The notes under the pieces: generated by a model
What the model was told of the DNA's origin: nothing
Seen by the model: the letters and a program-made list of their open reading frames with translations, nothing else
Databases searched by the model: none
Translations under genes and position numbers: made by a program
Shown: in pieces, positions 2,511-16,930 of the stretch
How the letters are laid out: every line of letters starts with the position of its first letter
Position numbering within the stretch: the stretch's first letter is position 1
Assembly: GCA_016187025.1 (NCBI GenBank)
Contig: JACPKM010000001.1
Location: 171,188-235,187, forward strand
DNA: 64,000 nt
Source of the DNA: Candidatus Daviesbacteria bacterium
GTDB taxonomy: Bacteria; Patescibacteriota; Microgenomatia; Daviesbacterales; UBA10151
Direction of reading: 5' to 3'

Positions 2511-5150
2511 TTATTTTGCAAAAATACCCTTAAAAATATTTTTAAGGATATCCCATAAGCCTTCGTGGGGTTTTAACTTATTCAAGAAAATTTTGAACTC
2601 AGCCCACCAAATTGGTACCCCTATAATATTCCTTTCTAACTCGTTATACTTACCCTCCGACATCCCATTTTTGCGGAGTTTGTTAAGCATTTTTTTGATA
2701 TCCTGGTCATCAGGCGGATAGTCAAAACCTATCCCCTCTTTATCTTTATGATAATCATAAACTCTTATTTTCATTACTGCTTCTGCTAAATTATCCATAA
2801 AATTTTTCATCTCCCCTTCACCCCAGTTTGGCTCAGCCATAAACTGCCTTGCTTTTTCTCCGGTTTCACTAAAATTTTTACCGATATTTTCTGCATCCTC
2901 ATATGTGCTTGCACTATTTAGCCATCTGGGCCCTGTTTTAGTAAAAAGCGGTAACAGCTCATCCGCCCCTGCCCATTTTTTGGACATGGCCTTAATCTTG
3001 ACAAAACTACTTGACCAATTTCTGACTGTTTCAGATGCAGAAACATAACCCAAGCCCGTGGTGATGGCTAAAGTCTTAAAATATGTCAGCGGTCTCATCC
3101 TGTGCGCATATTTACCTGGATTGGCCTCACCTGTTTTAGCTAAATCCATTGGCTTATTATGCACTTTGCCCAGCTCTCTTGCCCTCCTGCCGCTGATTGA
3201 AGCCTCGGGACTTAAATAAGGAAATAGCTGGATATAAACATGGCTAAGCTCATTACCCCAGGTTTCTGATACACGATAAGCCTGATTGCTTTGTACATCT
3301 TCTAATACTCTTTTAACCATCTTTCCATATTCACCATATTTATCTGGGTCACCAGCCATCTCATTAACCATCTTTGCCGCAATCCTTAAGTTAATCCTTA
3401 CCTTTACTCCTGTACCCAACTCACCATCAGGATAATCTTTAAATCCCTTGCGATATTTAGGCCTGGTAACCGGATCGTCCCACTCCAAAATAGGATTAAG
3501 CACTACTGGTCCCCCCCTGACATTTCTGGCGCGAAAGGCCGGATCATCAGCCATTCCGGCTAAATTATTATTGAAGTTTTCAACCTCCTGATACCAATCC
3601 ACACCTCTCTCTTCCTCCCTCGTTGGTTTATAATCCTGCTTCTTTCCAGTTATTTCTATAGCAGGAGGGGGTTTCTGCGTGTATCTTTCAGGAAGCGGTG
3701 CCTTTTTCCATACATCAGGGTCATCAACCCACCTAATTCCATCATATTCCACAGAAACACCAAAGGCATGATGAAACGATTCTGCTAAGTGAAACGCCCT
3801 GGCAATATCATCAACCAGTTTGGCAAAGCGTTCTTGTTGCTCAGGAGAAAATGGCAGTGCGGCTCCCGCAGAATCTTTTAACCTGCCCCCGTATTTTTCG
3901 ATTACTTCCTTAACTATATCCTCCCCTGTTTTTTGTCTTTCGTATTTGTCATTTTGTTCCAGATGATTAATAGCTATTTTCAATAATTCATCATAATCCT
4001 TCTTTCTAAATTCGCTATCTGATTTAAAATTAGCCAGACCTAAACCATCCTCAACTTTCCGGGCTTCATCAATCAGTTTAAATTTATGCCTGATGACCCA
4101 GCCTCTTTCTGCCTTATCATCCCCGCTTTTTAAATCTTTATCTACATCAAGATCCTCTTTTAAAAGGGGCGAGTAAAATTCTGCGTCAGATGGATATTTT
4201 CTGTCTTTAGGCTTTCTATAATAAGCTCCGTCTTCCCGGTCTTCAGACCCCAGATCGGCTTGTTCTAATATACCGGCAGCTTTTTCAACCCCTGCTAGTT
4301 CCAGTATTGACAACAAGTGTCTTTGATAAAAATTGGTGATATTTTTTGTATATTCGGCTCCGCTTATAAACTTGGCAATGAAATTGATAATATGCAGATT
4401 CAACCTACCTTCTATCACGGTAGTCATTTCAGCGCGGAAGTGCTCATTTTCAGCAAAAAGTGAATTCATTATTCCATATAACTCTTTGACAGCATCGGCG
4501 CCCTGAGGAGAAGCAGTATCCCTTTCCATTACCCGGACCACTTGCTCAACATAAATACGCACCCTCGTATAATCAGGATCAAGATCCTTCTCGTCTGCTG
4601 CTTTTAAATCATCTACCTTGCTGTATGTACCTAAGTGGCTTCTTCTTTCTAAAACCTGGGCTATCTCTTCGGGGGATAAACCCAAAAGTTGCAGCCTTAA
4701 CTGCTGAACCGCAGAATCTCTCTCTATAGCTTCCGGGTCTATACCTCTGGCAGCATAAGCGTCATAAATAGCTTGCAAACTCTTCGCTGCCCCCTCTCTG
4801 GTAAGACGCTGCTTCTCTGTAAGCCCCATGACCCGCCGGTACTTCTCCCACCATTCTGTTTCTTGTTCAGGTTTAGCCCGGTCTAACGCTGCCATTTCTT
4901 CTCTTTCTCTTTTAAGCTCCTCATATTTCCTTCTTCTTTCCTCATCATCACCTGCCCCCCCGCCTGCTTTGGGATAAAATTTACCATCGGGGGTTCTATA
5001 CCCGGGTATGCCATTTACCGTCGCTTCTTCAAATTCAATATCTTCTTTAACAGGTTTTTGGCGGCTAAAGACTTCTGAGGACATTAAAGGTTCTGCCTGT
5101 TTAGGTTCAGGCTGAGGAGGCGGGCCTCCTCTTTCTGCTGCTTCTGCCAT
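2511..5150 (-). CDS. Large (879 aa) hydrophilic, highly charged hypothetical protein with no TM or recognisable domain
   Basis: Long uninterrupted ORF. GC is higher and Arg/Glu/Asp/Pro content greater than in flanking genes. It is the last gene of a minus-strand trio embedded in the T4SS-like locus. Confidence 0.5.
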   Translation of the reverse strand: MAEAAERGGPPPQPEPKQAEPLMSSEVFSRQKPVKEDIEFEEATVNGIPGYRTPDGKFYPKAGGGAGDDEERRRKYEELKREREEMAALDRAKPEQETEWWEKYRRVMGLTEKQRLTREGAAKSLQAIYDAYAARGIDPEAIERDSAVQQLRLQLLGLSPEEIAQVLERRSHLGTYSKVDDLKAADEKDLDPDYTRVRIYVEQVVRVMERDTASPQGADAVKELYGIMNSLFAENEHFRAEMTTVIEGRLNLHIINFIAKFISGAEYTKNITNFYQRHLLSILELAGVEKAAGILEQADLGSEDREDGAYYRKPKDRKYPSDAEFYSPLLKEDLDVDKDLKSGDDKAERGWVIRHKFKLIDEARKVEDGLGLANFKSDSEFRKKDYDELLKIAINHLEQNDKYERQKTGEDIVKEVIEKYGGRLKDSAGAALPFSPEQQERFAKLVDDIARAFHLAESFHHAFGVSVEYDGIRWVDDPDVWKKAPLPERYTQKPPPAIEITGKKQDYKPTREEERGVDWYQEVENFNNNLAGMADDPAFRARNVRGGPVVLNPILEWDDPVTRPKYRKGFKDYPDGELGTGVKVRINLRIAAKMVNEMAGDPDKYGEYGKMVKRVLEDVQSNQAYRVSETWGNELSHVYIQLFPYLSPEASISGRRARELGKVHNKPMDLAKTGEANPGKYAHRMRPLTYFKTLAITTGLGYVSASETVRNWSSSFVKIKAMSKKWAGADELLPLFTKTGPRWLNSASTYEDAENIGKNFSETGEKARQFMAEPNWGEGEMKNFMDNLAEAVMKIRVYDYHKDKEGIGFDYPPDDQDIKKMLNKLRKNGMSEGKYNELERNIIGVPIWWAEFKIFLNKLKPHEGLWDILKNIFKGIFAK

Positions 5151-5194
5151 ATGAGTTATATTTTACTCTTTTGAAGAGTTACTAAGCAAATTTT

Positions 5195-6424
5195 TTAGGC
5201 AGGTTGCGCTTCCCCGCATGCCTTACAAAAGTTACACAAAACATAAGTTAGCTGTCCGCAACCCACACACCTACCTGTTTCCCATCCTTCTGAATTTCCT
5301 GTCATCCCCATTCTTAATCCTCCAATGGTGGTTACTGAGGTAATTCCCACACCTTTGCCAACTCCAAAACAACCCCTAAATGTTTGCATATATCCTAAAG
5401 CTTTATCCCTGTCCAGGTTTGTTAAACGCCCATCTGCTGATCCAAAGCTTTCCCCTTTTGAATAAAGAATTATTTTTATCAAAGCTTCCTTCATCTGTTT
5501 TTCCAGCCATTTTTGGCCAACAATAGTTTGCAAAGCATCGGGGAATTTGGCAAAGAAATTAGTTAAATCACTTATATATTGATGAAGAAGAGCATTTTGC
5601 TCTTCTTGATCTTCCTTTTCCAAAGCTGCACAAACTTGAGCGTTTGTGCTGTTTTCCCCTTCAAACGGATCTTTTTTCATAGCAACAATTTCATCAACAA
5701 GCTCCCCAAACCCATAAGATTGGTCTTCAGTTGCTTCCAAATACAGACCGTTTCTAACTAAGTTGCTGGTAACAGTCTTTTTATCAACGCCTAAAAACGG
5801 AATTGGCTCGTACGGCTTATATTTATTTCTTAGTTTATAGAAAAGTTTCTGGCACTCAATAACTGATAAATTAGTCCTGACAACCACAGATTTTAAACCT
5901 GTGGCATCTTTTTTGAAAAAGTAAAAGTAAGAATCCGGGTAGTCGATCTCTTTGTCTTGCGGATCTTTGATGTTTGAACACCCCTCTGGACTCCACAGCA
6001 TTGAAACAGAGCCAACAGGCGCTTTGTCCAAAAACCTCTCATTTTCCTCCCACACATCACAGACTGCCCCTTCGCGCTCATTAGGATCAATTTGTTCCAA
6101 AACCCTTCTGCCTGATTTATCAACTATATGCCCCTTTTCATTGATTCTGTAATTAATTGGTATCACTGCCTCACATCTGACATACTCCTTGATCCAAGAC
6201 TCAATATTTTCCCTATGCCCAATTACGGCATTTTCTTGGCCAACTATCTCAAGTTGTTTTGCCAGTGCGCCAACTTCATGTGCGGCATTAAAACCGACAA
6301 TAGGAATATTTAACACATTTAAGGAGAGCTCTTGATATGTCCTTAAAGGGGCTCTAGGTAGCCTATTCCGACCAATATCAAGGGGGGTGATAGCTTTTCC
6401 TGCTAATGCTTCTTTTGTTGACAT
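5195..6424 (-). CDS. Hypothetical protein with C-terminal CxxC...CxxC zinc ribbon
   Basis: 409-aa ORF ending in GRCVGCGQLTYVLCNFCKACG. It sits upstream of, and on the same strand as, the 879-aa ORF with a 44-nt gap. No known catalytic motifs recognised. Confidence 0.5.
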   Translation of the reverse strand: MSTKEALAGKAITPLDIGRNRLPRAPLRTYQELSLNVLNIPIVGFNAAHEVGALAKQLEIVGQENAVIGHRENIESWIKEYVRCEAVIPINYRINEKGHIVDKSGRRVLEQIDPNEREGAVCDVWEENERFLDKAPVGSVSMLWSPEGCSNIKDPQDKEIDYPDSYFYFFKKDATGLKSVVVRTNLSVIECQKLFYKLRNKYKPYEPIPFLGVDKKTVTSNLVRNGLYLEATEDQSYGFGELVDEIVAMKKDPFEGENSTNAQVCAALEKEDQEEQNALLHQYISDLTNFFAKFPDALQTIVGQKWLEKQMKEALIKIILYSKGESFGSADGRLTNLDRDKALGYMQTFRGCFGVGKGVGITSVTTIGGLRMGMTGNSEGWETGRCVGCGQLTYVLCNFCKACGEAQPA

Positions 6425-6509
6425 ATATCCTCTTTGCCCGAAGAGCTTTATCCAGAATCCAGGCAGTCCGGCTTTCGGAGCTTTAATTTATAACTTAAAC
6501 TTTCATTTG

Positions 6510-7355
6510 TCAATTGCGGTATGTAAAAGTATTTCGAATTGTTTCTGTAGGATGTTCATTCAGATTGGGCATTACATAACCAAAACCTGGAGAAGTTACT
6601 ATATAATGATATGGGGAGGTTGTATCTCCCAAGGCTACACGAACCCTATGCGCCGTCACTGGTAAAATATGTTCATTTTGGTAGCCTTCATGTGAGTAAG
6701 TATCACCCCATACTTTAGCCAATAAATCTTTTTTACTTACCGGCTCTCCTAAATTAGTTGCTAAAACAACTAATAATCTATATTCTGTAGGTGTCAAACG
6801 AACATGGCTTCCTCTTACATGAACACTCTGCTCTCTCAAGCTAATTGCCAACCCATCATTGTGTATAAACCTTGGTAACTGAGTGGTATCAGCACCTTTT
6901 AAATCAGGTAAGTGATCAAGCCAGCGAAACGCCCGGGTTAAGTTTATTAATAAATCCCCCCTATCCCTATAAGCTACCTCGTGATAATAAGGGTAATCTG
7001 CTCTGGTAAATGGTAAATCAGTATCACTACCCGCAAGCCTTGAGGCGATAACAGGACAACCCCTATCAAGCATCATCCCCATACTCACCCAAACATTACT
7101 ATCGGCAAACGAAATATCTCCTAAGGCAATATCCGCACCTTTGATGGCTTCCCTGTCAACCCTTCTACTGTCCCAATCGGTAACAGCTTGAGGATTTATT
7201 ATTTCAATATTTTCTCTTGAACCGGAAGCAGTTAATAAGGTTCTGCCAATCCTTTTGATTGCGGCATCATCCGTATGAGGAAGAAATAGATACGCAAATC
7301 TCTCCATAGCTTTAGTCAGGTGAGTAAATTTAACCAAAGCTGTAGTTTTTTTCAA
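6510..7355 (-). CDS. Atypical OmpR/PhoB-family winged-helix transcriptional regulator (no receiver domain; N-terminal glycosyltransferase-like fragment)
   Basis: C-terminus LTPTEYRLLVVLATNLGEPVSKKDLLAKVWG...VTAHRVRVALGD...IVTSPGFGYVM matches the trans_reg_C wHTH consensus. The N-terminal ~180 aa lacks the receiver D-D-K motifs. It contains GCPVIASRLAGSDTDLP, which resembles the GT1/GT4 C-terminal sugar-donor region. Confidence 0.6.
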   Translation of the reverse strand: MKKTTALVKFTHLTKAMERFAYLFLPHTDDAAIKRIGRTLLTASGSRENIEIINPQAVTDWDSRRVDREAIKGADIALGDISFADSNVWVSMGMMLDRGCPVIASRLAGSDTDLPFTRADYPYYHEVAYRDRGDLLINLTRAFRWLDHLPDLKGADTTQLPRFIHNDGLAISLREQSVHVRGSHVRLTPTEYRLLVVLATNLGEPVSKKDLLAKVWGDTYSHEGYQNEHILPVTAHRVRVALGDTTSPYHYIVTSPGFGYVMPNLNEHPTETIRNTFTYRN

Positions 7356-7494
7356 GAAGGAGTTTAAGGCGAAATGTATATACTAAACTATCTAATTTGT
7401 TACTAAAATGGTTTAATTTGCCCTTAAATGACCTACTTTGTATATCTAGACACTAAAATTTTCACGTTATAGGATCTAAAGGATAAACCTGCCG

Positions 7495-8553
7495 ATGGAA
7501 CCGCATCCAATACCACAAAATATTACCTCCTTTCAATTTAAGTTGATTGGGGATATGACTTTAAAGCAATTTATCTACCTTGCTACTGGGGTGGGAATAG
7601 CTTATTTAACATTTATTTTTTTAGGAGCAAGTATACCCATAATTGCCTGGCCGGTTATTATTTCCAGTTCTCTACTTGGAGTTGCATTTGCTTTTTTACC
7701 TGTTGGTTATAGGTCTTTGGACCACTGGATGATTGCTTTTATGAAAGCAGTTTATTCTCCAACTAAAAGAGGTTGGAAGAAAAGCGGAAAAGATTATAAA
7801 AACGAGCCTCTTTTTAATAGCAGACTGTCTATGTTTTTGCAGGTCACCTCTACTGCTGCTGTCAGTCAGACAACCACTCAGGTACCGCTTGCTCAACCAA
7901 GTATTAACCAGGAAGAAAAACCTGCAAAACCACAACAAGATGTTTTACCTTCTTCAGAAGAGTTACAAAAAACAGTTGAACTGGCCAAACAAGCACAGGA
8001 TCTGCAAAATCAGATTGTAGAAAATGAAAGGAAACTTACCCAAATTAAAGTAGCAGCCAGCAAACCTAGCCCAATTCCGGTTGACTATTCACAAGAAATC
8101 AAAACCATCCTCGAAAACCTTAATAAACTGTTAGAAAAAGCATCGGCAATAAAGAACCAGTTATCCCAGTTGGAACATCAAGAACAGCACAATATGAAAA
8201 ATATTCTGGTTGGGACAACTCCAGTAAGGATTGTCGCTCCATCAAAACCAAAACAAACTCCACTCACTCTGACAAGTTCAGCAAATGTTATTAATGGAAT
8301 TGTTAAAGATGCGGAAAACAACTACCTAGAGGGAGTGGTGGTGGTTGTCTACGATAAAGAGGGCTTGCCGGTAAGAGCCTTAAAAACAAATAAACTGGGG
8401 CAGTTTTCCAGCGCTACTCCCCTACCAAATGGAACTTATACAGTTGAGCTGGAAAAAGAAAACCTTTTCTTTGACGCCTTACAAATGGAGCTTGCTGGAG
8501 AAATACTTCCACCGCTTATGATAGCAGCAAAAAGAGGTGTAATTAACAGTTAA
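7495..8553 (+). CDS. PrgI/VirB3-like 2-TM protein extended by coiled-coil and C-terminal carboxypeptidase-regulatory-like beta-sandwich
   Basis: N-terminus FKLIGDMTLKQFIYLATGVGIAYL plus a second TM resembles the PrgI/TcpD/Orf17 (VirB3-like) family, which precedes VirB4 in Gram-positive T4SS. The middle is a Q/E/K-rich coiled coil. The C-terminus VINGIVKDAENNYLEGVVVVVYDKEGLPV...NGTYTVELEKENLFF is CarboxypepD_reg-like. Confidence 0.45.
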   Translation: MEPHPIPQNITSFQFKLIGDMTLKQFIYLATGVGIAYLTFIFLGASIPIIAWPVIISSSLLGVAFAFLPVGYRSLDHWMIAFMKAVYSPTKRGWKKSGKDYKNEPLFNSRLSMFLQVTSTAAVSQTTTQVPLAQPSINQEEKPAKPQQDVLPSSEELQKTVELAKQAQDLQNQIVENERKLTQIKVAASKPSPIPVDYSQEIKTILENLNKLLEKASAIKNQLSQLEHQEQHNMKNILVGTTPVRIVAPSKPKQTPLTLTSSANVINGIVKDAENNYLEGVVVVVYDKEGLPVRALKTNKLGQFSSATPLPNGTYTVELEKENLFFDALQMELAGEILPPLMIAAKRGVINS

Positions 8554-8554
8554 T

Positions 8555-9304
8555 ATGAATACAACACAGCAACACTTACCAATAAGAGATATTAAAGATG
8601 ATTTAGTGCTGCTAAAAGACGGAGGCTCGGCGCTGGTACTGCAAGTAGGCGCAGTTAATTTTGGATTACTCTCAGAAAGAGAGCAGATTGCAATTATTTC
8701 CTCTTTTGCCCAGATGCTAAACTCGCTGTCTTTTAGTATACAAATTCTTATTCATTCTGAAAGATTAAATCTTTCCTCTTATACCCAAAAATTAGAACAG
8801 GCACAGAAAATGCAAACTAATCCGTTACTGTCTAGTATGATAGGCCGGTATAAAACTTTTATACAAAAAATAGTAAAAGAAAATGATGTCCTGGATAAAA
8901 AATTTTATTTGGTAATACCAGCCTACAGCATAGAGTTGGGGATAGGGTTGTCAACTGAGGATATGTTTACAAAAGCCAAAACACTGCTTCTCCCCAGAAA
9001 AGATCAGATTATAAGACAACTTAGCAGGATTAGTCTGAGGTCAAACCAACTAAGCACCAGGGAGCTGGTTTTACTGTTTTATAACATCTATAACTATTCA
9101 CCAAATCAGCTAACTCTAACAAAACCAACCCAATCCCAAATTCAGGTAGACCAGGTACAGCTCAAAAACCCCCAACCTGCTCAGCCACCTGTACCTTCAC
9201 AAGTTGAACAAACGGTGTCAGTTATTACTCAACCAATCAGAGATACCTACACCAGCCCCAGCAAACGGGTGCCCTTTGTAGTTGAAGAGCTGACAGACAA
9301 TTGA
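8555..9304 (+). CDS. VirB4 N-terminal domain encoded as a separate ORF (split VirB4, N-part)
   Basis: IKDDLVLLKDGGSALVLQVGAVNFGLLSEREQIAIISSFAQMLNSLSFSIQILIHS resembles the extreme N-terminus of Gram-positive VirB4 proteins (PrgJ/TcpF/ConE-like). The ORF ends in TGA 4 nt before the ATPase ORF. The two lengths together give about 848 aa, typical for VirB4. Confidence 0.4.
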   Translation: MNTTQQHLPIRDIKDDLVLLKDGGSALVLQVGAVNFGLLSEREQIAIISSFAQMLNSLSFSIQILIHSERLNLSSYTQKLEQAQKMQTNPLLSSMIGRYKTFIQKIVKENDVLDKKFYLVIPAYSIELGIGLSTEDMFTKAKTLLLPRKDQIIRQLSRISLRSNQLSTRELVLLFYNIYNYSPNQLTLTKPTQSQIQVDQVQLKNPQPAQPPVPSQVEQTVSVITQPIRDTYTSPSKRVPFVVEELTDN

Positions 9305-9308
9305 GAGG

Positions 9309-11108
9309 TTGATTATGAATTTTGCAAATATATTTAAAAAAGGAGCTGCACAAAAAAACGCTGCCGCACCAAATTTTGATTTAAAGGATGTGCTAGCTCC
9401 TGCAGAAATTGAGGTAGATTTTAACGACATAAGAATCAATAACCGCTTTTATAGAACATATTTTGCATCAAATTATCCCCGTTTTGTTGAACCGAACTGG
9501 CTAGAACCCCTGATCTCTTTTGAGCATTCCCTTTTTATATCTATGTTTATCTACCCTTCTGAGTCAAAAGGTATACTTGATGATTTAAAAAGAAAGATCG
9601 GAGAAATGGAGGCTACCATTCAAACCGATCTGGAAAGAGGGCATGTAATTGATCCTGCTGTTGAGGTGGCGCTTGGGGATGCAAGAATTCTCCAGGAGCA
9701 ACTTGTCAAAGGTGTGGAGAGATTTTTCCAATTTGGACTTTACGTTACTGTACCCGCCAGTAGTAAAGATGAGTTAAGAAACACTTCAAAGCTTATTGAA
9801 TCAACCCTTGGTTCTATTTCAATTTCCTCAAACCCCACAACCTTACAAATGGAAGATGGTTTTAAAACTACCCTACCTATTGGGCAAGACTTACTAAATC
9901 TTTCCCATAATATGGACACTACCTCTGTTGCGACCACTTTTCCTTTTGCATCGTCTGAACTAACAGCAAATGAAGGCATTATGTATGGAATAAACCAGCA
10001 CAACGAATCTTTAATTCTTTTTGACAGGTTTTCTCTGGAAAATGCGAATTCAGTAGTGTTCGCCAAGTCTGGCGCGGGCAAGAGCTTTTTTGTAAAACTA
10101 GAGGCCTTACGTTCCTTAATGTTTGGCACAGAAATCTTAATTATCGATCCTGAGCAAGAATACTATCCTTTATGCCAAGCAGTTGGTGGAGAATATTTAA
10201 ACTTTTCAGCCAATTCGCCAATCAAAATCAACCCTTTTGACCTTGCTGGTGAGGTATCGGGAGAAAATAGACAAAGAAGTATATTTTCTGGCGAAAATGA
10301 GCTGGGAAGAAAAATTCTTTCCCTAACAGCCTTTTTAAAACTTGTTATGGGTAGTCTTGATCCTATTGAATCAGCAATTTTGGACAGAGCCCTAAAGCAA
10401 ACTTATGCTTTAAAAGGCATCACAGATGACCCTAAAACCCAAAACAGACAGCCGCCTTTAATGGAGGATTTATATAAAGTTTTAACCGGTATGGAAGAAA
10501 GACCTGCCTTATCGCTGGCTGCAAGACTGGAAAGATTTATTAAGGGATCTTTGGCAGGAATCTTTTCTTCTCACTCTAATTTACAAATTACTAACTCCTT
10601 TACGGTTTTTTCAGTCAGAGATTTAGCAGATCAGCTAAGGCCTTTAGCAATGCATTTGATACTGGAATTCATCTGGACAAAAATTAGGACTAGGTTAAAA
10701 AAAAGGATTCTAATTGTAGATGAGGCCTGGTATATGATGCAGTTTGAAGATTCAGCAAACTTCCTTGTAGACCTTGCAAAGAGAGCGCGCAAGTATTATC
10801 TAGGTGTTACCACCATCACCCAAGATGTTGAAGATTTCTTGGCCGGTGAAAGGGGTAAAGAGATTATCTCAAACTCATCTATACAAGTACTGCTAAAACA
10901 AGCCCCTGCTTCAATGGATCTGCTCTCAAGAGTCTTTCACCTATCAGAAGGCGAACAAAGACTACTATTGTCTGCTGGTATTGGCCAGGGATTGTTTTTT
11001 GCCGGCAATACCCATGTTGCCATGCAGGTGGTTGCGTCACCTGAAGAACACAGACTGGTTACTTCTAATCCTGCTGAGCTGATAATTACAGGGCCACCGC
11101 CTATATAA
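9309..11108 (+). CDS. virB4: VirB4/TraC-like T4SS ATPase (C-terminal part including ATPase core)
   Basis: CagE/TrbE/VirB-type region (FYRTYFASNYPRFVEPNWLEPLI), Walker A FAKSGAGKSFFV, Walker B ILIVDEAWYM. A GAGG ribosome-binding site lies upstream of the ATG. The Walker A sits unusually early, consistent with the N-terminal domain being in the preceding ORF. Confidence 0.85.
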   Translation: MIMNFANIFKKGAAQKNAAAPNFDLKDVLAPAEIEVDFNDIRINNRFYRTYFASNYPRFVEPNWLEPLISFEHSLFISMFIYPSESKGILDDLKRKIGEMEATIQTDLERGHVIDPAVEVALGDARILQEQLVKGVERFFQFGLYVTVPASSKDELRNTSKLIESTLGSISISSNPTTLQMEDGFKTTLPIGQDLLNLSHNMDTTSVATTFPFASSELTANEGIMYGINQHNESLILFDRFSLENANSVVFAKSGAGKSFFVKLEALRSLMFGTEILIIDPEQEYYPLCQAVGGEYLNFSANSPIKINPFDLAGEVSGENRQRSIFSGENELGRKILSLTAFLKLVMGSLDPIESAILDRALKQTYALKGITDDPKTQNRQPPLMEDLYKVLTGMEERPALSLAARLERFIKGSLAGIFSSHSNLQITNSFTVFSVRDLADQLRPLAMHLILEFIWTKIRTRLKKRILIVDEAWYMMQFEDSANFLVDLAKRARKYYLGVTTITQDVEDFLAGERGKEIISNSSIQVLLKQAPASMDLLSRVFHLSEGEQRLLLSAGIGQGLFFAGNTHVAMQVVASPEEHRLVTSNPAELIITGPPPI

Positions 11109-11116
11109 ATTGTAAA

Positions 11117-12952
11117 ATGGACAAAGCGTTTTTAATTGCAGCATTACAGGCAAAGATCAAAAGGCCCTTTAGACAAAGTTACGGAGGAAAACCATATAAT
11201 GAAATCTTTGAGCAGCTCAGAGCTGATAAGACATTTGCCGGTGTTAGCAGAAACAATCCCGATGATATCAGCCTAGCAGAAAATATTCTCGGCATATTAC
11301 TCACTTCTGAGACAAAAAGGTCTGCTCAGCCCCAAGACGAACCTGCGGAGGAAAAACAGAAAAAAGAGAAAAAAGCAGAATGGAGACCTAAGCTAGACTC
11401 ACCCAGTCAAACCAAAAACACCACCCCAGAACCTGAAGCATTTAGTATACCCTTGCCTATTTCAAGCTTTACAAAAACAGTTTTAAGTAAAACTTTAATA
11501 TTTATCAGAAAATCAGTGGGTAAATACATCAGTCTTTCCGGATTTGTTTCCTCAATAGAAAAACTTGTTTATCCAAACACCTCCGGTTTATCAGAACATA
11601 GAGACTATAGTTTGGGACCTGGGTCAAATATACCTAACAGAAATGGTTTTTCGCTTTTTTCAACAGGTGGTTTTAATTTTTTCAAAGGACGGGCATTGAT
11701 AATTTTTTTTATCATTCTTTTTATCATTTTACTAATCGGCATGCTCTCCGGACCAATTACTACACCCAGTAACACTCCGTCTGATATAACCTCAGGAAAT
11801 ATAAATACCTGTCAATTTACCAGAAGTGATCAAAATCCAAAGGAAGCATCTTTTAAAAGTCCCCTGCTTTTGGGCTATATCGAGGAAGCATCTAGGCTTA
11901 CCGGGATACCCCTGGTTGTTTTAGCAGGTTTTATACGAGTAGAATCACCTTCCTCAGTTAATTTTACTGATGAGCAAACAAGAAGCTACAAATGCGCTAT
12001 CAGTCCCACAGGAGCCTTAGGAATAATGCAAATACAACCTGCAGGCACAAGAGGCCATGATGCACCGGCAGTAACAAATGGTGCGGATTTTTTAGGATTG
12101 GATTATCAAACCTTAACGCAAGAAGATTATTGTGACGTAAGGAAAAATATTATTTTAGGAGCTGGGTTTATTTTAAAAAAGATGAGTTATTTAAAATTTG
12201 GAGACGGTACCAAATGGGATCCAAGCTGGACCAGAAACCAAAATGCCATCTATGCACTGGCAGAAAGCTATTATGGGTGTTTAAACTATGGGGGGTCTAA
12301 TCCTTTAAAATGCGATGGGCCATATAACTACGGACAAGATGTCTGGTCCAGTGTTTTAAGTTGTCAGCAAGGAGCTCCTCCTTCCTCAGCAGGTTTTACT
12401 AACCCTGAAGGGTTTGTCTATTATTGCCAGGGTGATCCAAGATGGGATAATAAATCTGGTTGCGGAATAGGTCAGATTGGATGCGGACCAACCTCGCTTG
12501 CAATGGTATTTAGTAGCCTAGGAAAGGCTGTAACCCCAGACCAGATGTATCAAACATTCTCGTCACAAAACAGGATTAACTGCGCTGTAGGTAGCTATAT
12601 GGAAACTATCCTCCAAGACAGGGCCTGGATGAGGGATCAAGGGTTTGAAGTAGGCCCAAGGGTGGTTGCAAATGGAAATCTTGATTTACCCAGAGCCAAG
12701 CAATACTTGGCAGAAGGCTATTTAATTGTTGGTTCTTCCCAAACTTTTCCCAGTTATATATCCAACAGGACTTTCCCTCATATATTTGTGGTTAATGGGG
12801 TAAATATAGAAGATAAAACCTTTAGTATCCGAGACCCGGCAAACTGCGACTACTCAACAGGAGTAGAGGTTGTTAGCAGGCAAATTAAACCGGCAAATGG
12901 TATAGGAGGGTTAAATTGGGCCTATGCTTACCCAATTAAAAGGATAAGATAA
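11117..12952 (+). CDS. VirB1-like bifunctional cell-wall hydrolase: lytic transglycosylase (SLT) plus C39-like cysteine peptidase, membrane anchored
   Basis: Cytoplasmic N-terminus, then one TM (ALIIFFIILFIILLIGML). SLT motifs E-S...AISPTGALGIMQIQP and YNYG. C-terminal CQGDPRWDN...GCGPTSLAMVFSSLG matches Peptidase_C39_2. The architecture parallels TcpG/CwlT/PrgK. Confidence 0.7.
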   Translation: MDKAFLIAALQAKIKRPFRQSYGGKPYNEIFEQLRADKTFAGVSRNNPDDISLAENILGILLTSETKRSAQPQDEPAEEKQKKEKKAEWRPKLDSPSQTKNTTPEPEAFSIPLPISSFTKTVLSKTLIFIRKSVGKYISLSGFVSSIEKLVYPNTSGLSEHRDYSLGPGSNIPNRNGFSLFSTGGFNFFKGRALIIFFIILFIILLIGMLSGPITTPSNTPSDITSGNINTCQFTRSDQNPKEASFKSPLLLGYIEEASRLTGIPLVVLAGFIRVESPSSVNFTDEQTRSYKCAISPTGALGIMQIQPAGTRGHDAPAVTNGADFLGLDYQTLTQEDYCDVRKNIILGAGFILKKMSYLKFGDGTKWDPSWTRNQNAIYALAESYYGCLNYGGSNPLKCDGPYNYGQDVWSSVLSCQQGAPPSSAGFTNPEGFVYYCQGDPRWDNKSGCGIGQIGCGPTSLAMVFSSLGKAVTPDQMYQTFSSQNRINCAVGSYMETILQDRAWMRDQGFEVGPRVVANGNLDLPRAKQYLAEGYLIVGSSQTFPSYISNRTFPHIFVVNGVNIEDKTFSIRDPANCDYSTGVEVVSRQIKPANGIGGLNWAYAYPIKRIR

Positions 12953-13877: not shown

Positions 13878-14978
13878 TCAACTTAATCTTACAGGCATAA
13901 TTATATATTGCAATCCCTGCTCTCCAATGGGCTTTATCAAAGCCGCCGACAGCTGTCCTGATAGCTCAATCATTACTTGACTTGTAGGCGAGGCAGCAAC
14001 TGCATCTTGTAAAAACTTGGCATTAAAAGCAACTTGTAAATCTTCTCCCTCGATTTGCCCTTCTACCTCATTTTGCTGGCTACCTAACTCTTTTGCGGAA
14101 GACTCTAAAACAAGCTTACCTTCTGACACCTTAAACACAATAATATTTGCCTCACTTCTGGCAAACACTGAAGCCAGCTTTACCGCTTTTAAAATCTGGT
14201 CTTTATCAACTACTGCCCGGGTTATCAGCTGTGTGGGAATAATTTTTTCCCAAGAAGGAAATTGTCCTTCTATTAAACGGGAGGAAACTATTGTCTGGCC
14301 AATAGAAAATATAATCTGGTTTTGATTTACAGAGGTTGCAATACTTATTTGCTCTGCAGCTTCTTCTGAAATCACCCTTAAAACCTCTTCAAAGGTTTTT
14401 TTGGGAATTAAACTTTTAAACTCTTTGGTATTTTCTGGCAGACTCACTTGTCTGTGCGCCAACCTGAACCCATCGGTTGCCACAAGGTCAAGCTTATCTT
14501 TAGATGCATGAGTTAAGATTCCCGTTAAAACAGGCCGTCCTTCATCAACCGCTGCTGAAAAAAGAATTTGCGAGCAAGACACTAAGACGTCTTTTTTAAA
14601 CACTATCCCTTCACTGCCTGGCAGGGGAATCGCAGGAAACTCAGAAGCTGAAATGCCATTTACCGTAGCTTTAAACTTACCGCTAGTTATTTCTAAAACA
14701 TCACCCCTTGATTCAAGCTCAACTTTAGAAGAACCTATTCCCGAGATAAGCTCAACGATTGTTTTTGCTGGAACAGTTATTTCTCCTTCTTCTAAAATAT
14801 CTGCAGGGATTTGTTTTATTACTCCAATTTCTAGATTTGTCCCTGCAATTTTAATTTTCTTATCTTGAGCTGATAAGAAAATATTATCTAAAACAGGCAG
14901 CGTTGATTTGACTCCTACAGATCTTGAGACTGCTGATAATGGAGGCAGTAAGTCTTGTTGTAATACTGATAGCTTCAC
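13878..14978 (-). CDS. dnaN: DNA polymerase III beta sliding clamp
   Basis: MKLSVLQQDLL...LPVLDNIFLSAQDKKIKIAGTNLEIGV is the beta-clamp N-terminus. Size and domain organisation are typical. It lies downstream of dnaA. Confidence 0.9.
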   Translation of the reverse strand: MKLSVLQQDLLPPLSAVSRSVGVKSTLPVLDNIFLSAQDKKIKIAGTNLEIGVIKQIPADILEEGEITVPAKTIVELISGIGSSKVELESRGDVLEITSGKFKATVNGISASEFPAIPLPGSEGIVFKKDVLVSCSQILFSAAVDEGRPVLTGILTHASKDKLDLVATDGFRLAHRQVSLPENTKEFKSLIPKKTFEEVLRVISEEAAEQISIATSVNQNQIIFSIGQTIVSSRLIEGQFPSWEKIIPTQLITRAVVDKDQILKAVKLASVFARSEANIIVFKVSEGKLVLESSAKELGSQQNEVEGQIEGEDLQVAFNAKFLQDAVAASPTSQVMIELSGQLSAALIKPIGEQGLQYIIMPVRLS

Positions 14979-15616: not shown

Positions 15617-16930
15617 TTAAATCAACCTTTGCTTGATCTCGCCAATAACCCTTTGTATCTCCTTGTCACGAGAAAGCAGGGTTTTAATTTTGTCCCGGCC
15701 ATGCATAATAGTGGTGTGGTCCCTGCCTCCCAGCATCTGTCCCACTCTTTCTACAGTTATATTTAGTTCTTCGCAAAGAAGGTACATAGTAAGATGCCTT
15801 GGTAACACAAGCCCCTTTTGTCTTTTTGGACCAGTCAGATCTTTTTGGGAGATATCAAAATACTCGCAGATGGTTGTAAAAACCCTTTTTTGGTCGAAGC
15901 GGGTAATTCTTTGAGTTGAATCCTGTAAAAACGGACTAACATTTTGGATAGTTGGTGCCAGGTTTTGAGCGTGTAGCGCCTGAAGGATTTGAACCAATTT
16001 TCCCTCCAGCTCCCTGATATTAACATCTAAAGAAGAAGCCAGTTGCTTTAATACTTCCTCGGGTAACTCTTCATCTTTCTCTGCGCATTTAGCGCGCAAA
16101 ATCGCCACTCTGGTATCAAAATCCGGAGGTTGGATATCCAGCATCAACCCGCCGGCAAACCTGGATTTTAGACGATCTTCCAGTTTAACTATCTCGTGGG
16201 GAGTCCGGTCTGATGTTAAAACCATTTGAGCGTTTTTCCCCTGCAGCTCATTAAATGTATGGAAAAATTCTTCCTGAGTCCCTTCTCTGCCGGAAAAAAA
16301 TTGAATATCATCGATCAGCAAAAGGTCAATTGAACGGTATTTGTTCCTTAGCTCCCCCATTTTGTGTTGCTGGATTGCAGAGACGTAGTCATTCATAAAT
16401 TTTTCTGAGGAACAATAAATAACCTTTAAACGAGGCTTATTTTTTAAAAGAGCATGACCTATCCCAAGCATTAAATGTGTTTTCCCGACACCTGTTCCCC
16501 CATAAAGAAACAGGGGGTTATATGAGATGCCGGGGTTTTGTACCACTGCCTGGGCTGCAGCAAAAGCGACATTGTTTGATGGTCCAACCACAAAGTTTTC
16601 TAAAGTATATTTAGGATTTAATTGAAAAGCTGGGGCGGCAGGGGGCTGAAAAAAAACCTCTTCTGTAACTTCGGGCTTAGCTAAGTTTTCTTTGACCACA
16701 AATTCTACAACAACCTTTTTATTCAACATTCCTTCAAAGGTGGATTCAATTAAGGGTTTATGCCTTTGATTTAAAGTTTCTTTAATAAAGGCATTAGGGG
16801 TGGAAAGGATCACTTTATCTTCAGTGACCTCTTTTAAGCTGGTTTTTAAAAACCATGCCTTTAAATTGGCGCTGCTAACTTGAGGCTTAATAGTTTCCAG
16901 AAATCTATGCCAGAGCTTTAAATTATCCAT
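15617..16930 (-). CDS. dnaA: Chromosomal replication initiator protein DnaA
   Basis: AAA+ Walker A GGTGVGKTHLM, Walker B LLLIDDIQF, and the C-terminal DnaA-box-binding HTH (LTMYLLCEELNITVERVGQMLGGRDHTTIMHG). Confidence 0.95.
   Translation of the reverse strand: MDNLKLWHRFLETIKPQVSSANLKAWFLKTSLKEVTEDKVILSTPNAFIKETLNQRHKPLIESTFEGMLNKKVVVEFVVKENLAKPEVTEEVFFQPPAAPAFQLNPKYTLENFVVGPSNNVAFAAAQAVVQNPGISYNPLFLYGGTGVGKTHLMLGIGHALLKNKPRLKVIYCSSEKFMNDYVSAIQQHKMGELRNKYRSIDLLLIDDIQFFSGREGTQEEFFHTFNELQGKNAQMVLTSDRTPHEIVKLEDRLKSRFAGGLMLDIQPPDFDTRVAILRAKCAEKDEELPEEVLKQLASSLDVNIRELEGKLVQILQALHAQNLAPTIQNVSPFLQDSTQRITRFDQKRVFTTICEYFDISQKDLTGPKRQKGLVLPRHLTMYLLCEELNITVERVGQMLGGRDHTTIMHGRDKIKTLLSRDKEIQRVIGEIKQRLI

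Follow-up and report, generated by a model that had tools for sequence, protein, structure and literature searches.

A lineage-restricted gene pair within a type IV secretion locus of Daviesbacteria, preceded by a cobalamin riboswitch in relatives and by a putative replacement regulator in one lineage

The window analyzed here is a stretch of 64,000 nucleotides (nt) from Candidatus Daviesbacteria bacterium (assembly GCA_016187025.1, contig JACPKM010000001.1, forward-strand positions 171,188 to 235,187), and its positions are counted from its first letter. Inside a type IV secretion system (T4SS) locus it carries three minus-strand open reading frames (ORFs), which an earlier note on this DNA had located correctly: 2511-5150, encoding a large soluble protein of 879 amino acids (aa), 5195-6424, encoding a 409-aa partner protein 44 nt upstream of it on the same strand, and 6510-7355, encoding a regulator of 281 aa when read from a TTG codon. 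Our analysis shows that what the earlier note missed is a cobalamin (B12) riboswitch ahead of this operon in relatives and, in the window, a shortened remnant of it. The 409-aa and 879-aa genes very probably form an ancestral accessory operon of the T4SS locus, confined to one clade and riboswitch-led in the relatives, whose RNA sensor was displaced by the regulator in the lineage of the window. The whole explanation, which adds to the ancestral pair and the exchange of riboswitch for regulator a B12-tied role of the pair as client of the T4SS, seems to us on balance right.

The placement of the pair was followed in a synteny set made up of the window and 11 further members of the 879-aa family (12 distinct loci). 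Both T4SS operons are visible in the window, L001, L008, L011, L013, L015, L032, L033 and L034; L010, L014 and L016 are shorter. In all nine longer loci the large gene is flanked by the PrgI-TrsD-VirB4 operon on one side and by the VirB6-like gene on the other, with pilin genes following the VirB6-like gene wherever the contig reaches far enough. Throughout the set, the short L010, L014 and L016 included, the large gene and whichever gene holds the VirB6-like position are transcribed towards each other (12/12). This placement held at 21-35% identity to the 879-aa query. Apart from L010, which bears a toxin-antitoxin pair, a same-strand partner gene stands upstream of the large gene in 11 of the 11 loci whose sequence covers that region. 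The pair persists in loci despite the entry of other genes, and neither protein has plasmid or phage homologues. The shared synteny and the lack of such homologues indicate that the 409-aa and 879-aa genes are ancestral to the locus in this clade and did not arrive by insertion. Among the genes that have entered, we noticed three opposite-strand genes of unrecognized families between partner and large gene in L011 and, at the corresponding place in L015 (8983-9954, minus strand), an opposite-strand gene for a 323-aa protein with a weak match to a DnaJ domain. A MazE/PIN toxin-antitoxin pair lies in or beside the T4SS locus of L034 (17347-17605).

A cobalamin riboswitch was matched in 9 of 11 loci, each time directly upstream of the partner gene and on the same strand. 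The gathering score of the Rfam model RF01689 (AdoCbl-II) is 36.5 bits, and three matches reach or exceed it: L034 (3224-3304, 43.5 bits), L001 (9833-9911, 42.4 bits) and L033 (6469-6543, 36.5 bits). The other six lie at 26-35.5 bits (E 2e-5 to 0.06). Five of them are RF01689 matches, found in L008 (8640-8715, 35.5 bits), L016 (1183-1261, 34.3 bits), L014 (1070-1137, 32.4 bits), L015 (7575-7667, 27.7 bits) and L032 (8494-8559, 26.4 bits), and the sixth, in L011, is to RF00174 (Cobalamin, 28.7 bits, E 2e-5). The leaders of the relatives resemble cobalamin riboswitches (clan CL00101) in a GGGAA...GTG...TC hairpin, a GCCGYAACCGT element, the B12 box (AGCCGGACTGCC), covarying stems and an expression platform of the terminator type. 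Compensatory changes have kept the P2 and P3 stems: six loci show four and six different stem sequences, respectively, and pairing is intact at 58 of 60 positions. Next to the aptamer on its 3' side is a conserved hairpin (TCTCTTCGAGnCAAAGAG), and an intrinsic terminator stands just ahead of the start codon in L008, L014 and L016. The leaders differ from the known riboswitches of the clan in what they precede, namely genes within a secretion locus that belong to no known family of B12 transport, synthesis or isozymes.

The copy in L011 (4487-4680) carries a hairpin of ~80 nt inserted in the aptamer and fits RF00174 better than AdoCbl-II; both aptamer architectures, the classical one included, are thus present at the same syntenic site. 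We also observed that in L001, L008, L011, L014, L015 and L016 every aptamer is preceded by a conserved hairpin, (Y)TGG-ATCAGA-CCA(R), whose stem covaries. It is located 20-30 nt ahead of the Rfam match, beyond the model itself, and this riboswitch subtype may possess it as an additional element. When metagenomes were scanned with the riboswitch core, 15 loci were recovered, and the pair is present in just one of them (L018, identical to L016). One further locus is a classical riboswitch before a TonB-dependent receptor, and most of the others look like chance matches.

In L001, the closest relative of the window (64% identity for the 409-aa and 52% for the 879-aa protein), a 410-nt non-coding stretch with the riboswitch occupies the place that the regulator gene holds in the window. 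Alignment to the complete aptamers of the relatives located a riboswitch remnant on the minus strand of the window, at 6430-6475. It represents the 3' ~45 nt of the aptamer; the 5' two thirds are gone and the 3' end of the regulator gene is found there instead. Retained are the B12 box with the 3' strand of P2 (AAAGCCGGACTGCCTGG, 6475-6459) and a hairpin, CTCTT-CGGGCA-AAGAG (6445-6430); the 3' arm of this hairpin overlaps the Shine-Dalgarno sequence (AAAGAGGA, 6435-6428) of the 409-aa gene. No model of the cobalamin clan reached its gathering score in the whole window, and none gave a match at E<=10 over 6300-7600. Being truncated, the window aptamer cannot be a sensor.

Two promoter-like sites on the minus strand frame the regulator gene. 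One, TTGAAA-17-TAAATT (7327-7355), lines up with the TTGACA promoters found ahead of the riboswitch in L001 and L008, and by this alignment it appears to be the ancestral promoter, now driving the regulator. The other, the sigma-70-like TTGACA-17-TAAATT (6485-6513), overlaps the stop codon of the regulator just upstream of the remnant and the 409-aa gene, and ranks first among the promoter-like sites of the region, with 10 of 12 consensus positions matched. Nine diverse loci have an intact aptamer and lack the regulator; by parsimony, therefore, the regulator gene is the newcomer, inserted behind the ancestral promoter at the cost of about two thirds of the aptamer. By tblastn the regulator is found in no related locus and matches only assemblies of the window genome (the window, L005 and L006), and no Trans_reg_C gene is present in any related locus. 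The presence of the same arrangement in three assemblies shows that it is not an assembly artefact. We found no repeats flanking the regulator gene. In the lineage of the window, a protein regulator thus appears, from these alignments, to have displaced the RNA sensor.

The regulator itself agrees with its earlier description as an OmpR-type winged helix-turn-helix (wHTH) protein that lacks a receiver: the Trans_reg_C domain scores 57.2 bits against a cut-off of 26.2, with the wHTH encoded at 6570-6809, and no receiver was matched in Pfam at E<=10. Its NCBIfam and PDB matches span the DNA-binding domain only, the best in PDB being the DNA-binding domains of VicR, KdpE and SaeR. The N-terminal ~150 residues have no Pfam match at E<=10 (residues 1-160 searched), and neither a B12-binding nor a receiver domain at this end finds support in Pfam or PDB. 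The protein is therefore like the OmpR/PhoB response regulators in its C-terminal winged helix and unlike them in having no receiver recognizable by sequence and no adjoining histidine kinase gene in the ORF list. In independent assemblies of this genome, the gene caller opens it with the ATG at 7307, for a length of 265 aa (6510-7307). The TTG of the 281-aa ORF, at 7355, coincides with the first base of the -35-like TTGAAA that aligns with the promoters of the relatives. The ATG at 7307 is the more likely start.

The earlier note had described the trio as a single, compositionally foreign module with visibly higher GC content. The GC contents of the three genes are 0.424, 0.406 and 0.401, against a mean of 0.387 (standard deviation 0.028) for the 55 other ORFs of the window, which corresponds to z = 1.3, 0.7 and 0.5; for GC at third codon positions (GC3), z = 1.0, 0.5 and -0.6. 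The claimed excess of Arg, Asp and Glu fared no better, as the fractions of Arg, Asp+Glu, Lys and Ile+Asn all fall within the range of the window. The contrast that had been seen is one between soluble proteins and neighbouring membrane proteins, and does not mark foreign DNA. A recently inserted foreign cassette comprising the whole trio can point to the strand, opposite to that of the neighbours, to a GC content slightly over the window mean and to a regulator that is truly lineage-specific. Against it, GC and GC3 stay inside the spread of the window, the 409-aa and 879-aa genes keep their synteny in every related locus, no flanking repeats were found, and there is no similarity to plasmid, phage or PADLOC entries. 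We regard this explanation as very improbable and as effectively refuted. The large gene has been kept in place in related loci down to ~21% identity, and for the 409-aa and 879-aa genes no relatives turned up in which the T4SS genes run contiguously without the insert. Of the alternative reading in the earlier note, a later insertion, the part that survives concerns the regulator, which is in no related locus; for the two large genes, syntenic in relatives, it does not hold. An origin of the 409-aa and 879-aa proteins from defence systems, phages or plasmids was likewise rejected, since no PADLOC, PHROG, plasmid or phage matches were obtained.

Neither of the two large proteins belongs to a known family: as the earlier note had it, no family could be recognized, and we obtained no Pfam, NCBIfam, PADLOC or PHROGs match. 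An exhaustive HMMER search of 1.84 billion representative proteins placed 19 representatives in the 879-aa family at E<=1e-3. Both of the two named members are from Candidatus Daviesbacteria, the pair's organism wherever the source names one, and the NCBI name of the 879-aa protein is hypothetical protein. Word-indexed homology searches returned the query itself only, whether run with the 879-aa sequence or with the profile of its family, and neither form found a match in PDB sequences. Scanning the species-representative genomes of GTDB twice, with patterns drawn from the 409-aa and 879-aa families, revealed no relative, though L002, L008 and L011 originate from NCBI assemblies. The family may be poorly covered by the species representatives, or the patterns, which are degenerate, may have been too narrow.

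The 879-aa protein has no transmembrane (TM) segment (maximal 19-residue hydropathy 0.97), an isoelectric point of 5.8 and a Pro/Glu/Arg-rich N-terminus that is disordered in the AlphaFold model, in line with the hydrophilic, charged protein described earlier. Neither it nor the 409-aa protein has a signal peptide or a TM segment, and both are probably cytoplasmic when made. Residues 1-170 (4641-5150, minus strand, as are the segments that follow) form the disordered and variable N-terminus, which in the family alignment is of low complexity and ranges from 155 to 790 residues. The core, residues ~171-845 (2616-4640), is modelled with confidence and is mostly alpha-helical. An AlphaFold (AF2) model built with the family alignment has a predicted local distance difference test score (pLDDT) of 76.8 and a predicted template modelling score of 0.75, with the core near pLDDT 90. 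A Foldseek search with this model gave no match in PDB or BFVD, the best PDB entry having E 0.07 and a template modelling score of 0.1. Within the core, D211, R249, G308, R312, R451 and P487 are nearly invariant in the family, and E209, H253, H278, E296, D299, HH460-461, D470 and W474 are mostly conserved. This invariant Asp/Arg/His pattern suggests an enzyme-like or ligand pocket-like site. The basic amphipathic C-terminal tail, residues 846-879 (2514-2615), is conserved, with a net positive charge in 16 of 17 full-length family members.

The 409-aa protein has CxxC-x7-CxxCxxC at its C-terminus, which bears out the zinc ribbon of the earlier description as a five-Cys zinc-ribbon-like motif, C386-C403 (5216-5269, minus strand). 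It has no family or PDB match, a word-indexed search with it found one homologue, and its AF2 model is unusable (pLDDT 39). The positional partners of the large gene (n=11, 322-482 aa) all end in CxxC-x(6-12)-CxxCxxC. By BLAST, seven of them group in one family that includes the 409-aa protein (E 1e-42 to 1e-53), a second family has two members, and the remaining two stand alone. Comparison of partner subfamily profiles was weak, with an hhalign probability of 41% over the C-terminal 110 columns, and homology of the partners beyond the five-Cys motif is accordingly unproven.

Against this background, a role of the two proteins as substrates or accessory factors of the T4SS, which the earlier note had raised, is plausible from sequence and position. 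Strict T4SS synteny together with a B12 sensor is most simply accounted for by a client or adaptor that is associated with the T4SS and whose production depends on cobalamin status. The pair would be made according to the intracellular B12 status and would work with or through the T4SS, the 879-aa protein as client (substrate or docked factor) and the zinc-ribbon protein as its partner or adaptor, in a role linked to the cell's supply of cobalamin from the host. This functional part, a B12-responsive pair working with or through the T4SS and tied to cobalamin supply, we propose only tentatively. A bolder version, a T4SS-linked device for cobalamin acquisition, is unlikely on present sequence evidence. 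In that version, low intracellular B12 would lead the riboswitch to permit both proteins, and the 879-aa protein, aided by the zinc-ribbon protein, would be exported through the T4SS or docked on it and take host B12 or a B12-dependent resource; the riboswitch would also sense successful feeding on the host, and the strain of the window would have rewired this input to a protein regulator.

The pair could instead be a cytoplasmic module for B12 salvage or processing (for example an analogue of a corrinoid chaperone, a reductase or an adenosyltransferase) or a B12-independent substitute enzyme that merely resides in the T4SS locus. Genes behind cobalamin riboswitches nearly always serve B12 transport, synthesis or salvage or encode B12-independent isozymes, and with a riboswitch in 9 of 11 loci this counts for such a module, as do the solubility of both proteins, the five-Cys motif, which could hold a metal or an Fe-S cluster, and the pocket suggested by the invariant Asp/Arg/His of the 879-aa protein. 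Against it, the position between the T4SS operons is unbroken in 12 of 12 loci despite other genes entering the locus, and a long, hypervariable, disordered N-terminus is odd for a housekeeping enzyme. Searches of Pfam, NCBIfam and PDB gave no similarity to a known B12 family, ribonucleotide reductase or MetE; specifically, no match to BtuB/F/C/D, CobW, MetE, NrdA/D/J or adenosyltransferases was found with either protein or the family profiles. We consider such a module rather unlikely.

Lower still we place the idea that the pair is a structural or cytoplasmic part of the machine itself, replacing missing parts of a monoderm T4SS as a substrate receptor, a coupling platform in place of a VirD4 encoded in the locus or an assembly factor; this is improbable. 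It is favoured by the constant, single-copy presence of the pair at a fixed position and by a locus in which no coupling protein or VirB8-like gene was recognized with Pfam and NCBIfam, and a published survey finds these components few in number or divergent in Microgenomatia (PMC12102498). The same survey describes VirB4, TrsD, PrgI and pilins across Patescibacteria (PMC12102498), whereas the present family is confined to one small clade. Separate transcription under a metabolite riboswitch would be odd for a core structural part, the partner diverges beyond recognition between sub-clades, and no P-loop or other ATPase signature was seen: neither large protein, nor any of the 19 family members, has an FtsK/VirD4 P-loop ATPase or relaxase domain in Pfam or NCBIfam.

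Several observations weigh against the explanation that we prefer, an ancestral accessory pair that was riboswitch-led and serves the T4SS as a B12-tied client. Five of the nine riboswitch matches are under the Rfam gathering score, and L013 has no riboswitch. In L010 a BrnT/CopG toxin-antitoxin pair (57-612) takes the place of the zinc-ribbon partner gene. Since opposite-strand genes split partner and large gene in L011 and L015, the riboswitch there directly controls the partner only. The canonical response of cobalamin riboswitches to ligand is off; constrained folding of the leaders gave no ON/OFF sense for the ligand effect. The promoter-like sites in the window are consensus matches only, no more numerous than in shuffled sequences. 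In addition, we saw no B12-dependent enzyme or transporter in the window, and fixed single-copy synteny is atypical for effectors.

The T4SS setting that the earlier note had recognized around the trio is confirmed by the neighbouring genes. On the side of the 879-aa gene, two T4SS_pilin genes (31-438 and 448-741, both above the cut-off) are followed by a plus-strand gene for a polytopic membrane protein with six TM-like segments (783-2498), which has no significant Pfam match and is called VirB6-like from its position and topology only. This gene and the 879-aa gene converge, and as their stop codons are 12 nt apart (2499-2510), the two transcripts must overlap or end within the opposing gene. 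A terminator-like hairpin is present on the plus strand at 2550-2571, near these stops. On the other side, the plus-strand operon PrgI-TrsD-VirB4 (7495-11108) is divergent from the 409-aa and 879-aa genes. It comprises PrgI (VirB3-like, 7495-8553, 36.5 bits), a TrsD/TraC-like gene of 249 aa (8555-9304), whose TrsD and Mbov_0397 N-terminal matches are below their cut-offs and whose position is conserved, and a VirB4 ATPase of 599 aa (9309-11108) that matches NCBIfam NF045971 (CD1110 family) with 377 bits against a cut-off of 325 and Pfam P-loop_TraG with 96.7 bits. A peptidoglycan hydrolase with SLT and C39 domains (11117-12952), dnaN (13878-14978) and dnaA (15617-16930) lie beyond. The TrsD/TraC-like gene (the N-terminal VirB4-like part) and the VirB4 ATPase gene are separate and adjoining (8555-11108), as they are in all related loci, and VirB4 of L008 (2898-6518, 1206 aa) contains Intein_splicing and LAGLIDADG_3 domains, that is, an intein within the T4SS ATPase.

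Between the divergent operons we noticed a conserved non-coding block at 7404-7466, CGTGAAAA..GTCTAGATATACAAAGTAGGTCATTTAAGGGCAAATTAAACCATTTT (also given as CGTGAAAA..GTCTAGATATACAAAGTAGGTCAATTAAGGGCAAATTAAACC). It is near-identical in L001 (~9640-9705) and L008 (~8465-8530) and recognizable in L013 (~8140-8190), and is retained where the proteins of the locus share only ~39% identity. The block may serve as an operator or else as 5' leader to the PrgI-VirB4 operon.

The comparison system is the chromosomal T4SS of Patescibacteria, whose VirB4 clade is related to MPF-FATA (Quinonero-Coronel et al. 2025, PMC12102498). That survey describes dnaA/dnaN proximity and pilin arrays for these loci, and the window agrees with it in the VirB2-like pilin array, PrgI/VirB3, TrsD, VirB4, a peptidoglycan hydrolase by dnaN and dnaA, and the lack of a relaxase (PMC12102498). 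VirB6 homologues are given there as scarce in Microgenomatia (PMC12102498). In the excerpts of the survey we found neither a riboswitch reported for the locus nor a gene pair on the opposite strand that separates PrgI from the VirB6-like gene (PMC12102498), and a literature search found no paper that joins a cobalamin riboswitch with Patescibacteria. The T4SS is widespread in Patescibacteria and essential in the one species tested, S. epibionticum (PMC11665869, PMC12102498); its role is unknown, with effector delivery or nutrient uptake proposed (PMC11665869).

For a large soluble protein with a positive C-terminal tail and a smaller adjoining partner in a T4SS cluster, VirE2/VirE1 of Agrobacterium offers a possible parallel from general knowledge, by analogy only. 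Unlike that system, the pair described here shows no sequence or fold similarity to it, and its partner is a protein of 322-482 aa in place of a small acidic chaperone.

A riboswitch-controlled pair of family-less proteins in a T4SS locus provides a handle on this system, as it comes with a defined ligand that should switch the genes, and the two proteins are candidate clients for tests of export or of binding to the machine. The window itself represents a natural experiment in which an RNA sensor appears to have been swapped for a protein regulator. If the link between B12 and the T4SS is true, the T4SS of these ultra-small, host-dependent bacteria would be connected with cofactor acquisition. 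Even without that link, the locus adds two new protein families, one of them confidently modelled and without a matching fold in PDB or BFVD, as well as a new class of genes under riboswitch control.

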